Below are positions 15,579 to 46,905 of a DNA stretch of 64,000 nucleotides, piece by piece. The notes below the pieces were generated by a model. That model searched no databases. It was not told where the DNA came from and was given only the letters and a program-made list of their open reading frames with translations. Every line of letters starts with the position of its first letter. Within the stretch, counting starts at the first letter, position 1. A program made the translations under genes and the position numbers. Source of the DNA: Candidatus Eiseniibacteriota bacterium (GTDB taxonomy: Bacteria; Eisenbacteria; RBG-16-71-46); contig JBGAOA010000010.1 in NCBI GenBank assembly GCA_044222065.1, positions 8,672 through 72,671 of the forward strand, given 5' to 3'.

Positions 15579-16161
<583 letters not shown>

Positions 16162-29790: not shown

Positions 29791-29987
29791 AGATTCCCCG
29801 CCGGTTGCCGTGTGCGGTGAAGTTCTTGAGACCTGGAACGAACCAGGTGGGTGCCCCTGTCGACCGGGTCTGCCCCCCACGCGTCCGACCGCGACGGTGG
29901 TTCGACTTCGCCGGCCACCGGAACTCCCGTGACTTCACATTGTGGTTCAAGAACTGTGACGCATCACGAGCACGGCAGGGAAAACTC
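29791..29987 (-). ncRNA. ssrS: 6S RNA
   Basis: Sits between zapA and rny. Ends pair (TTCCCTGCCGTG with CACGGCA..CGGGGAA), TTCTTGA pairs with TCAAGAA, central bubble, CCCACCTG; about 195 nt. Confidence 0.88.
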
Positions 29988-42841: not shown

Positions 42842-44617
42842 TCAGCGGCGGCGCTCGGCGACCTCCGCGCGCACGCGCTCGATGAACGCCTCGCGCGTCA
42901 TCACGTCGAGCTGTCCCTCGCCCTTCCGGCGCGGGGACACCGTGCCCGCCTCGGCCTCGCGCGGGCCCACGACGAGCATGTAGGGGATCTTCTCGACCTC
43001 GGCGTCGCGGATCTTCGCGTTCATCTTCTCCTCGCGCACGTCGGCCTCCGCCCGCAGGCCCGAGTCCTTGAGCAGCCGCGCGGTGTCGAGCGCGTAGTCG
43101 AACGCCTTCGGGTTCGCGGGGATCACCTTGACCTGCGTCGGCGCGATCCACACCGGGAACTCGCCTCCCGTGTGCTCGATGAAGATGCCCGCGAAGCGCT
43201 CGAGCGATCCGTAGAGCGCGCGGTGCAGCATGATGCACTCGTGATCCTGTCCGTCGGGCCCCGTGTAGTGGACCCCGAAGCGCTTCGGCAGGTTCAGGTC
43301 CACCTGGATCGTCGGGCACTGCCATTCCCGGCCGAGCGCATCGCGCAGCTTGACGTCGATCTTCGGCGCGTAGAACGCGCCGCCGCCCTCGTCCACCTCG
43401 TAGGGCAGGCCGCGCTTCTCGAGCGCCTGGCGGAGCGCGTCGGTTGCGAACGACCACTCCTCGTCGGTGCCGAGGTACTTCTCCTTCGGCCGCGTCGCGA
43501 GGTAGCAGACGTACTCGTAGCCGAACGTCTTCAGCAGGTAGTCCATCAGGTCGAGGATGCCCTGAACTTCGTCCTGCAGCTGGTCCGGCGTGCAGAAGAT
43601 GTGCGAGTCGTCCTGCGTGAAGCCGCGCACGCGCTCCATCCCGTGCAGCACGCCGGAGCGTTCGTAGCGGTACACCGTGCCGAGTTCGGCGAAGCGCAGC
43701 GGCAGGTCGCGGTACGAACGGCGCCGCGACTTGTAGATCATGATGTGCCCGGGGCAGTTCATGGGCTTCGTGCGGTACGGCATGCCGTCCACGTCCATCG
43801 GCGAGTACATGATGTCGCCGTAGTTCTGCAGGTGCCCCGAGATCTCGAACAGCTTCTCGCTCGCGACGTGCGGCGTGAACACGAACGAGTACCCGCGGCG
43901 GAGGTGCTCTTCCTTCCAGAGCTTCTCCATCTCGTGGCGCACCATGCCGAGCTTCGGGTGCCAGAAGATGAGCCCCGGCCCCACCTCTTCGTGGATCGAG
44001 AACAGGTCCAGCTCGCGTCCGAGCCGGCGATGGTCGCGGCGCAGCGCCTCCTCGACGTTGCGCAGGTGCTGCTCCAGCTCGGCCGCCGACGGGAACGCGG
44101 TGCCGTAGATGCGCTGGAGCATCTCGTTGCGTTCGTTCCCGAGCCAGTACGCGCCGGCGACGTGCGTGAGCTTGAACGCCTTCACCTCGCCGGTGCTCTT
44201 CACGTGCGGCCCGCGGCACAGGTCGAGGAACGGACCATTGCGGTAGGTCGTGACCTTCGCGCCCTCGGGAATGACCGTGAGGAAGTGCAGCTTGTACTTC
44301 TCCCCCGCCTTCTCCCAGTGCGCGCGCGCCGCGTCGCGGGTCGTCTCCTCGTACGCGAACGGCTGATCGGCCGCGACGATCTCGCGCATCTTCGCTTCGA
44401 TCGCCTCGAGGTCCTCGGGCGTGAACGGCTTGTCGCGCGCGAAGTCGTAGTAGAAGCCGTTCTCGACCGGCGGACCGCCGGCGACCTTCACGTCGGGGAA
44501 CAGCTCGGTCACCGCGGTTGCGAGCACGTGCGCCGCGGAGTGGCGCAGCCGGTACAGCGCTTCGCCGCCGGGGTAGTGGGTCACGTCGGGACGGTCGTCA
44601 GCTGTCGCCTGGCTCAT
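42842..44617 (-). CDS. thrS: Threonine-tRNA ligase (short form lacking the N-terminal TGS domain)
   Basis: RHSAAH, DLCRGPH, RDHRRLG, KPMNCPGH, RVRGFTQDD, LHRALYGSLERF. Confidence 0.97.
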   Translation of the reverse strand: MSQATADDRPDVTHYPGGEALYRLRHSAAHVLATAVTELFPDVKVAGGPPVENGFYYDFARDKPFTPEDLEAIEAKMREIVAADQPFAYEETTRDAARAHWEKAGEKYKLHFLTVIPEGAKVTTYRNGPFLDLCRGPHVKSTGEVKAFKLTHVAGAYWLGNERNEMLQRIYGTAFPSAAELEQHLRNVEEALRRDHRRLGRELDLFSIHEEVGPGLIFWHPKLGMVRHEMEKLWKEEHLRRGYSFVFTPHVASEKLFEISGHLQNYGDIMYSPMDVDGMPYRTKPMNCPGHIMIYKSRRRSYRDLPLRFAELGTVYRYERSGVLHGMERVRGFTQDDSHIFCTPDQLQDEVQGILDLMDYLLKTFGYEYVCYLATRPKEKYLGTDEEWSFATDALRQALEKRGLPYEVDEGGGAFYAPKIDVKLRDALGREWQCPTIQVDLNLPKRFGVHYTGPDGQDHECIMLHRALYGSLERFAGIFIEHTGGEFPVWIAPTQVKVIPANPKAFDYALDTARLLKDSGLRAEADVREEKMNAKIRDAEVEKIPYMLVVGPREAEAGTVSPRRKGEGQLDVMTREAFIERVRAEVAERRR

Positions 44618-44722
44618 CGGAGGATCCCGCGGAAAGGAAGAAGGCGGCGCGCCGCAACCGGCGCCGCCGCCTCGGCCCCACGCCGCTCGCACCTCGGGCA
44701 GTCGGGGCGATCGGACGGAAAG

Positions 44723-44798
44723 TGGTGGGCGCTACTGGACTTGAACCAGTGACCCCTTGCTTGTCGAGCAAGTGCTCTACCAGCTGAGCTAAGCGCCC
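44723..44798 (-). tRNA. tRNA-Val(GAC)
   Basis: GGGCGCT acceptor stem, anticodon arm CTTGC-TCGACAA-GCAAG, GGTTCAAGT T-loop, encoded CCA. Confidence 0.95.
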
Positions 44799-44884
44799 GC
44801 GAGGCGCAGCATTTAGCCGTAGGGCGCGTGAGGGTGTCAAGCGGCCGACCTCGACTCGCGCGCCCTTCCCGCATTCTCGGACGG

Positions 44885-44924
44885 AATGAAACCGGGTGCC
44901 GCGAACGTGAGTTCGCGACACCCG
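44885..44924 (-). terminator. Terminator-like hairpin
   Basis: CGGGTGTCGCGAAC-TCAC-GTTCGCGGCACCCG followed by GTTTCATT. Confidence 0.55.
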
Positions 44925-45035
44925 CATCGTCCGGAGTCCCCCTCAGGCCTCCGGCGACGTCTCTCGCTTCCGGTCTTCTTCGTTCCGTCTCTCTCTCGCG
45001 ACTCACGCCCGCCGCCCCGCGGCGAGCGGAGTCGG
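44885..45035 (-). ncRNA. Candidate sigma54-dependent small RNA
   Basis: Begins at the predicted +1 of a sigma54 promoter. Contains a 5' 16-bp hairpin, a 38-nt U-free purine-rich linker, a second hairpin and a 14-bp terminator-like stem. Confidence 0.55.
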
Positions 45036-45045
45036 ACGATCACTG

Positions 45046-45061
45046 TGCAACGCGCGGGCCA
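45046..45061 (-). promoter_or_regulatory. Sigma54 promoter
   Basis: TGGCCC-GCGCG-TTGCA (GG-N10-GC). Confidence 0.65.
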
Positions 45062-45545
45062 ATCGCGGATCGGCCCGACTCGATCGCGCCCGGTCCCCGC
45101 ATCGTGGACGACTCCTCGGACGCCTCGCCGTCTCGCGCGCGTCGAAACGCGAGGAGCCGCGGGTCCGACCCGCGGCTCGCTCGTCGTGGAGTCACGTCGT
45201 GACTCCGGCAGGCACTTGGTGAGGAAGCTGGAGAACTCCCTGTCGTCTTGGGCTTCCTTCCGCCGCGAGGCGGTGGATCCCGTTCACGTCATGCGCCCCC
45301 TTTCGCTCGGGTCGTGGCACGACGCGCACGAGGGCGCGTCCGGGATCAACGTGGCCCACGCGAAGGCGTCGCTGGCGCGAGACGGCGAGCGGCGTCGAGC
45401 GGGATCGCCCACGGAGTGCGCGCGAGCGCGAGTCCGGTGGGGCGTCGGCGGCGCGGCGAAGTCGAGCATGGGCGTCTCACGGTGACGGGGCGGTCCGGGG
45501 CGCGGGCCTGCGAGCCGCGCGGGGGTCGGGATCGATTTCCCGAAT

Positions 45546-45561
45546 CGCAATCGCCGCGCCA
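45546..45561 (-). promoter_or_regulatory. Sigma54 promoter
   Basis: TGGCGC-GGCGA-TTGCG (GG-N10-GC), upstream of a small CxxCH-containing ORF. Confidence 0.55.
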
Positions 45562-45683
45562 CGGGGTGCAGCCGCGGACGTGCACGCAAGTGGCTGCGGC
45601 GGCGTCGCGGCGTGGCGCCAGCGCTGCGGCGAGGGGCAGGATCTTCCGAACGCGCGGCCGGACCTTCCGGACGATCGCGCCGC

Positions 45684-46905
45684 TCAGGCCGCGGGGCGGA
45701 ACTCGAGCACGAGCGCGAGCGCGTCCTCGTGCGGGCGACGCCGGCCCGCGTGCGCCATCGCGGCGTCCACGGCGGCGCGCGCGAGCGACTCGACCGGCGC
45801 CGGACGCGCGGACTCGAGCGCTTCGAGCAGCCGTGCTTCGCCGAGCGGCTCCCCCGCCGCGTCGGGCGCACCCGTCAGGCCGCAGAGGCGATGACGAGCC
45901 GGTCGCCGGGCAACAGTCGCGACTCGGTCTCGGGAAGCGCGGCGTGCTCTTCCCCGTGCGGTTCGCCGCGTCGGTCGGCGATTCGCGTCACGCGCCCGCC
46001 GTCCGCGGGAATCCAGAACGGCGCCGCGACGCCCGTGTTGCACGACGTCGCGCGGCCCCCGCGGCCGAGGTGGGCGATCCAGAACGCGCGCGCGGCGCCG
46101 GGCCGAAGCGCGAGTGCGTGCGCAGGTGCGCGAGCGTCGCGAGCCACGCGAGAGGCCGGTCGGAGCCCTGCGCCCCGCAAGCAGTCCTTCGAGGAACGCG
46201 CAGGGACCGAACGACTCCGCCTTGGAGCCGCGCGTCTCGAGCAGGTAGACGGTGTGGGACCCGTCGAGGTGCGTGAGCTGCCCGCACGTCACGGCGCCGA
46301 ACGCGCGCGCGTCGCGCCGCGCCGCGGCGAGCGCGTAGTGACGGAACTCGGAGCGGCTCGCCGTCGGCCGGGAGCGAGGGCCGCGATGCGGCGCGCGCGC
46401 GTTCCACGGCGCTCGCGAACGCCTCTCCGAGCGCGGGCGCGCGCGGCGCTCGAGCAGGTTCGCGAGCGGCGCGGAGCGTGCGCCGCACCCTCGAGGTCCG
46501 CCTCGCCGAACGCGCTCGCACCGGCGGGGCGCGCGAGGTTCACGAGTCCGAGCGCGCCGTCGGCGCCGAGCACCGGCACGCACAGCGACGACCCCCACGC
46601 TCCGCCGAGACCCTCGAATCGCCCGTCCTCGGCGCGGCCTCGTGCTTCAGGGGCGCGCCGAGCAGCGAATCGGGCAGTCCGAGCACGACGCGCACGTGGA
46701 ACCGGTCGTCCTCGCCGTCGGCGAGCGACAACGAGGCGCGAGGCGCGTTCGCGGCCTCGGCGATGCGCTCGAGCGCGGCGCGCACGAAAGTCTCGTCCCC
46801 GGCCGCGTGGGCGGCGGCGAGGCCGGTCAGATCGGCCTCGAGTCGGGTCCAGTCGATGGAACGGTGCGGTGCGGCGGCAGGCACGGCGGGCGCCCGGTCG
46901 GGCAT
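45684..46905 (-). pseudogene. GAF plus degenerate SpoIIE/PP2C-like protein broken by several frameshifts
   Basis: Fragments in changing frames: RASLSLAD..FHVRVVLGL, SSLCVPV...LGLVNLAR...FGEADL, SCNTG..APF, LLPGDRLVIAS and GLT...GEPLGEARL...EDALALVLEF. Confidence 0.65.

Follow-up and report, generated by a model that had tools for sequence, protein, structure and literature searches.

In the window, which is the whole analysed stretch of 64,000 nucleotides, a candidate RNA of ~155 nt was found on the minus strand upstream of tRNA-Val. Judged from its sequence, it is probably a sigma54 small regulatory RNA and an orphan of a single genome. A real sigma54 transcript from this locus is considered rather probable. 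The full explanation preferred here, an Hfq-independent sigma54 small RNA that base-pairs through GA-rich segments, is proposed tentatively. The elements of the locus are listed below, each with its basis in brackets where one applies.

45188..45206, strand unspecified: perfect 8-bp dyad, ~153-171 nt upstream of the predicted start
45046..45061, minus strand: sigma54-type -24/-12 promoter motif, TGGCCC variant (sequence, spacing enrichment, match in the relative G050)
44880..45035, minus strand: candidate small RNA, ~155 nt, 5' hairpin plus three-way junction (agreement of MFE and centroid, z -5.0)
44999..45034, minus strand: P1, 5' hairpin of 16 bp with one bulge (predicted fold)
44990..44998, minus strand: unpaired GA-repeat linker, first candidate pairing seed (unpaired probability ~0.9)
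44978..44989, minus strand: 5' strand of the closing helix P2, within the purine tract (pairs with 44880-44891)
44960..44977, minus strand: purine junction, mostly unpaired, in which GCGAGAGA occurs a second time together with the one GGA that is largely exposed (predicted pairing)
44925..44959, minus strand: P3 hairpin, with CCTGAGGGGG at its tip, a G-run that resembles a Shine-Dalgarno sequence and precedes an ATG by 10 nt (predicted fold)
44885..44924, minus strand: P4, terminator-like 14-bp hairpin with a GTTTCATT tail (terminator scan)
44835..44840, minus strand: TTGACA -35 box of a separate tRNA-Val promoter, outside the candidate RNA (conserved in relatives)
44723..44798, minus strand: tRNA-Val(GAC), downstream neighbour (tRNA/Rfam annotation context)

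An earlier, sequence-only reading had placed a sigma54-type motif, TGGCCC-N5-TTGCA, at 45061-45046 with a +1 at ~45035. The motif is present there on the minus strand, and the spacing from its -12 element gives a start near that position. Non-coding TGGC-N7-TTGC sites numbered 21 in this genome, compared with 5-9 for six other spacings (~3-fold enrichment); on this ground about two-thirds of them are real and about one third is expected by chance. It was observed that 17 of the 18 promoter bases are identical to the promoter heading a conserved RNA in the relative G050, where this sequence occupies the position of the canonical sigma54 motif in G050's relatives. The TGGCCC variant also precedes three other conserved non-coding elements in relatives. 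When it was tallied by pattern search across the family it was no commoner than a reversed control (64 sites against ~70), and the 16 of these 64 sites that were retrieved included no homologue of the candidate RNA. A search of the genome for rpoN, which had been proposed as a check, was positive, and ~21 full sigma54 activator domains were found as well; motif, correct spacing, sigma factor and activators thus occur together, as would be expected of a sigma54-dependent small RNA. The dyad at 45188..45206 may be an activator site. Its GTCAC-N3-GTGAC sequence occurs twice in the genome, both times in non-coding DNA.

The anatomy that had been described downstream of the motif was recovered. The 16-bp hairpin P1 was found at 45034-44999, with 16 pairs and one bulge, beginning one base past the predicted +1. 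The U-free stretch follows at 44997-44960, 38 nt long with 33 purines. Only three tracts genome-wide passed a matched purine filter, the other two being Lys-rich coding ends by eye, and the tract is unique among the non-coding DNA of the genome. The CCGGAG/CTCCGG hairpin and the 14-bp stem with its U-rich tail also lie on the minus strand as given; the helix of the former (44954-44931) is extended by five further pairs to 44959-44925. The 14-bp stem (44924-44893) followed by GTTTCATT was the sole terminator-like site in 44600-45700, where shuffled sequences gave 0.5 +/- 0.8. Its U tail is weak, and this end lies 45 nt ahead of the independent tRNA-Val promoter.

One element of the earlier description has to be revised, namely that the A/G-rich stretch is a free single strand. 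Eleven tract bases (GACGGAA and GAAG) form pairs with positions 44891-44880 of the 3' tail. The resulting helix closes a three-way junction in which P3 and P4 sit, and the structured unit extends ~5 nt beyond the end given before. The 9-nt GA linker and the 18-nt junction are left unpaired, with one copy of GCGAGAGA in each; two copies, both unpaired, compare with 0.005 expected per window in that count. The P3 motif C[CT]GAGGGG has a frequency of 0.012 occurrences per 200 non-coding nt and is partly paired in the predicted fold. The fold as a whole was stable, with z -5.01 and none of 200 shuffles equally stable. A second estimate was z -5.8, and 4 of 253 random non-coding windows (sampled from 2,006) were at or below -5; the ends of the stretch folded for the candidate in this comparison were picked by eye. 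The MFE structure and the centroid concur. The minus strand folds at -94.1 kcal/mol and the plus strand at -84.2 kcal/mol, a difference of ~10 kcal/mol in favour of the minus strand, whose fold contains five G-U pairs.

The statement that no credible ORF is present was borne out, since all six overlapping or adjacent ORFs scored negative in a genome-trained codon model, in which the real 79-aa csrA itself reaches only ~0. A stable fold, non-coding sequence and a terminator-like end, the features of a sigma54 sRNA, were therefore all observed. Reading along the minus strand, one meets aroF, then a phosphatase-like gene with a frameshift, a sigma54-like motif at 45561, ~500 nt of non-coding DNA with hairpins, the candidate RNA, the TTGACA promoter, tRNA-Val and thrS. 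The candidate lies 80 nt before tRNA-Val on the same strand. Among the thrS loci of 29 relatives, tRNA-Val was present in 28, and TTGAC was seen before it in 27 of those 28 (by eye), so tRNA-Val has its own promoter. These 28 neighbourhoods include one unpublished relative (G026), and no claim hangs on that genome alone. The region upstream of tRNA-Val differs among the relatives and the DNA there thus turns over fast. The upstream phosphatase-like gene was not syntenic: among the matches listed, the relatives mostly have miaB-like genes next.

Several observations were made on the surroundings. The phosphatase-like gene (45684-46905, minus strand) is frameshifted in the window, and in each of two studies the RNA contigs share indels relative to it at 45879, 46350, 46436 and 46473, which suggests assembly errors. 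The segment 45130-45561 on the minus strand is possibly a second small unit, judging from the second sigma54-like motif at 45561, a strong hairpin at 45154-45178 and a Shine-Dalgarno-like run ahead of frames of 2 and 31 codons; a 61-aa ORF (45469-45284) contains CxxCH, and no homologue of it was found. In the RNA data, consisting of assembled contigs from four of the six listed runs, the organism is represented by scattered pieces of 150-300 nt at a depth of 2-5. One short jointed piece touches 45004-45170, and 44837-45003 lies outside the coverage. The 6S RNA at 29791-29984 on the minus strand (Rfam RF00013, 63.9 bits) would be a useful expression control.

An Rfam covariance search over the candidate RNA gave no match, 6S, tmRNA, RNase P, T-box and riboswitch families included, which agrees with its having been called undescribed; elsewhere in the genome, contig C98 carries tmRNA, and an RNase P motif was seen on C120. 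The earlier reading had named conservation of promoter and hairpins in relatives as a check, and upstream of tRNA-Val-thrS nothing similar to the candidate was found in 28 relatives. With blastn against the 88 family genomes, all of other genera (the study genome is the only member of its genus in this set), only short GC-rich matches and no homologue were obtained. A one-sequence covariance model reached at best 26 bits in the same genomes, with no promoter; this match, in G024, was rejected as a homologue, and so was the G050 element, which belongs to a family termed E below. With 0 homologues in 88 genomes of other genera, neither conserved sequence nor covarying structure could be found. 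Sequence patterns across the family and GTDB likewise gave nothing related. The GTDB-wide promoter-plus-GA pattern had 14 matches, none above 10.9 bits, and a phylum-wide pattern matched in 140 of 206 genomes, about the control frequency, 130 rows (most family rows among them) being outside the matches listed. A metagenome scan with a 16-nt tract pattern produced at least 119 chance matches, and none of 100 of these loci matched model R1, which is one sequence entered twice. As no more than 29-150 candidates are scored per genome in the genome-wide RNA searches, these may overlook distant homologues. The sigma54-driven non-coding RNA of ~150 nt that had been proposed is therefore plausible as regards rpoN, the ~21 activators, the missing Rfam match and the G050 promoter identity, and its expected conservation is not borne out in these other genera. 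The best reading is that the RNA would be lineage-restricted, found so far in one uncultured bacterium.

The element in G050 (G050:C267:15093-15308; L079:1501-1716) belongs to an uncatalogued sigma54-led RNA, family E, that is found in 41 other family genomes. Its models score 75-122 bits in 42 of the 88 genomes, 31 of which were used to build the model, and 36 of the 37 copies retrieved have a sigma54-type motif upstream. In its three helices pairing stands at 96%, double changes occur at 16 of 29 pairs, a terminator is present and the apical CCGAGGGG is invariant; an Rfam search of family E gave no match. The G050 copy follows an NtrC-type activator gene. Family E is better supported than the candidate RNA. 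In the study genome, a syntenic look-alike with CCGAGGGG and a long stem (G000:C104 ~15750-15900, minus strand; L327:754-897) scores ~11 bits and has no sigma54 motif upstream. A family-E-like hairpin with a terminator (L235:2325-2451, G005; 39 bits) was seen directly after a flagellin stop codon.

Other elements of this kind were encountered. Element A is a conserved rod-like RNA of ~125 nt that follows a sigma54 motif of the TGGCCC type; its 5' hairpin bears a tetraloop and its apex a G-run. It was located at G000:C107:14614 (minus strand; L282), G017:C24, G061:C3, G024:C18, G058 (two copies) and G007:C48, with 78-88% identity between genera and no Rfam match. Element D is a sigma54-led non-coding region of 250-330 nt in one genus (L212, L213, L388, L389 and L390, from G069, G080, G064, G077 and G079, respectively), in which CU-rich CTCTCC and CTCCCC are repeated in hairpin loops and a C/T run precedes the terminator. 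Two scanned copies had no Rfam match, and the element was not found in G000. Two further conserved non-coding elements behind sigma54-like motifs, at G000:C7:71230 (minus strand; L284) and G000:C106:99470-99680, are common to G017, G052 or G061. From these sequences the bacterial family appears to make uncatalogued sigma54-led RNAs, which raises the prior for the candidate RNA.

Under the preferred explanation, sigma54 RNA polymerase would transcribe a stand-alone sRNA of ~155 nt from ~45035 upon the switching-on of an activator, and the transcript would end at the P4 hairpin, ahead of the separate tRNA-Val promoter. A stable scaffold would present the two unpaired GA-rich segments, which would act through base pairing, free of Hfq, on CU-rich mRNA leaders. 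The leading candidate target would be the flagellin leader, in which a CU run flanks the helix over the ribosome-binding site; pairing at this run would favour translation. The genome encodes csrA and flagellin, csrA (79 aa) lying among flagellar regulators (G000:C121:9151-9390; L062). No PF17209 match for hfq was obtained in the 94%-complete genome (a control search found hfq in 5 of 14 genomes), and proQ and fliW were also without a match in it. The proposed check for hfq and csrA was thus positive for csrA only. Once a protein sponge is judged unlikely, base pairing is the standard mode of action that remains, and it is regarded as possible, on predicted structure, with some reserve.

Three genomic occurrences of TCTCTCTCT were found: opposite the candidate RNA, in the flagellin leader and opposite the flgE leader. 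The predicted 15-bp duplex with the flagellin leader has -17.6 kcal/mol after opening costs and ranks 3 of 3,319 called leaders, this leader having been noticed before the target scan was run. Opening the ribosome-binding site costs 8.7 kcal/mol alone and 6.1 kcal/mol with the pairing site occupied, which is why pairing would favour translation. Nevertheless, 11% of 400 dinucleotide-shuffled tracts bind the flagellin leader equally well, so the match reflects composition more than sequence and is largely compositional; flagellin also came first in 9 of 57 shuffles when a sample of 244 leaders was used. Relatives lack the long CU run in their flagellin leaders, two genomes alone having short versions of it, and none of five relatives has the GA run of flgE. 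On these predictions flagellin is a quite doubtful target. Flagellin itself is patchy, being present in 28 of the 88 relatives. In flagellated relatives (L220-L249) its leader is conserved: there is a promoter of TCAAG type, and of the two hairpins one is at the 5' side while the other has CAGAAG, CAGGAG or ATGGAG in its loop; the next gene is often one that looks like flbT.

The simplest alternative is that the locus makes no functional RNA, a chance promoter-like motif standing beside GC-rich terminator or insulator hairpins in a fast-changing intergenic region between the phosphatase-like gene and the tRNA-Val promoter. Strong hairpins are common throughout this 72% GC genome, and the promoter scored below 8 bits, outside the 189 ranked sites, with a matrix trained on promoters of 33 relatives. 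The chance share of the promoter sites (about one third), the variable DNA upstream of tRNA-Val and the failure to find a homologue in 88 family genomes or by GTDB patterns point the same way. This reading is nevertheless considered rather unlikely: the motif, the hairpin next to the start, the helix that closes the junction at long range and the terminator-like end are aligned on one strand, which is the more stable by 10 kcal/mol with five G-U pairs, and the purine tract has no equal in non-coding DNA. Alternatively, the candidate could be the 5' leader or attenuator region of a longer sigma54 RNA that continues through tRNA-Val and thrS, or it could be a small mRNA whose translation starts with the G-run and the ATG at the base of P3. 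The same-strand position 80 nt before the tRNA, the weak U tail and a G-run-to-ATG spacing that resembles the flagellin start would fit. This is very unlikely, given that tRNA-Val has its own conserved promoter, that no T-box or riboswitch was matched, that no competing fold appears (MFE and centroid being in agreement) and that the frame opened by the ATG extends across the tRNA and is rated non-coding, at -63, by the codon model.

The RNA could also work as a decoy, with GGA motifs or the two unpaired GCGAGAGA copies, whose number far exceeds expectation, sequestering CsrA or some other RNA-binding protein of the flagellar system; with csrA present and fliW without a match, an RNA antagonist could be needed. 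Binding of Hfq or CsrA by the A/G-rich strand had been suggested from the sequence, and it is poorly supported. Hfq binding is unlikely because hfq has no match, which also speaks against the decoy. A GGA in a hairpin loop is the usual binding site of CsrA (PMC13443453). In the candidate 4 of 5 GGA are paired, among them the only ANGGA. A CsrB/RsmZ-type sponge would expose many ANGGA in loops. Five or more GGA occur in 22% of 12,518 non-coding windows, so the density is ordinary, and the looped CAGGA, ATGGA and CAGAAG hairpins found around the flagellin genes of relatives are missing. A CsrA sponge is accordingly unlikely, as is the decoy in general. A relocated, diverged paralogue of family E is a further alternative, in which P3-P4 would be the functional end and the apical GAGGGG loop before the terminator the working part. 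The order of parts is that of the G050 copy (5' hairpin, purine segment paired to the U tail, C[CT]GAGGGG stem, last hairpin), with 76% identity to it over promoter and first hairpin. The loop motif lies downstream at only 2 of 95 non-coding TGGC-N8-TGC sites, and the study genome has no canonical family E copy, only the syntenic look-alike that lacks the sigma54 motif. The family E models, however, give the candidate 12.7 and 12.6 bits (E ~0.2 in 77 kb) against 75-122 bits for members, and it was not assigned to the family; as these models also miss the look-alike (11.3-11.6 bits), they are insensitive at that distance. Such a descent is held to be quite improbable.

If the preferred sigma54 sRNA is real, it would be an uncatalogued one from an uncultured phylum that lacks detectable Hfq, ProQ and FliW, and would offer a testable route to post-transcriptional activation of flagellin. 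In the literature pairing Eisenbacteria with small or non-coding RNA, no title on such an RNA was found among the titles seen. Its status as an apparent single-genome orphan limits its weight, and the several conserved sigma54-led RNAs of the family matter more than the candidate itself. In a wider and quite improbable scheme, the lineage would run an Hfq-free layer of sigma54-driven RNAs acting through exposed GA-, G- and CU-rich runs, with the candidate linking the sigma54 tier to flagellin by pairing at the CU run and freeing the ribosome site.

Among known systems, Qrr and GlmY/GlmZ resemble the candidate in a stand-alone sigma54 promoter, a structured RNA and a terminator-like end. Qrr and GlmZ need Hfq, whereas the candidate has no Rfam match and its genome no hfq match, so that an Hfq-dependent sRNA is not indicated. 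The sponges CsrB/CsrC/RsmZ and CrcZ are likewise purine-rich, and csrA is in the genome, but the GGA motifs of the candidate are not enriched and are mostly paired; CrcZ needs Hfq, so a sponge of its type is not indicated either. Family E has the promoter type and the order of parts in common with the candidate, and in both GAGGGG, partly paired in the candidate's predicted fold, sits at the tip of the hairpin that precedes the last one. The candidate differs in failing its covariance model (12.6 bits), in its locus and in the long GA tract, which is missing from family E. A further comparison is CJnc230 (FlmE) of Campylobacter jejuni, an RpoN-dependent sRNA that adjusts flagellar genes by pairing a single-stranded stretch with their mRNAs, and the candidate would work in a similar way. 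FlmE is processed from the flgE mRNA, exposes an anti-Shine-Dalgarno motif, represses flgM and is conserved across species (PMC11187230). Compared with FlmE as described there, the candidate is without homologues, has a promoter of its own and carries a purine-rich seed that would pair upstream of the ribosome site. The two have no sequence in common, and the candidate would activate where FlmE represses.
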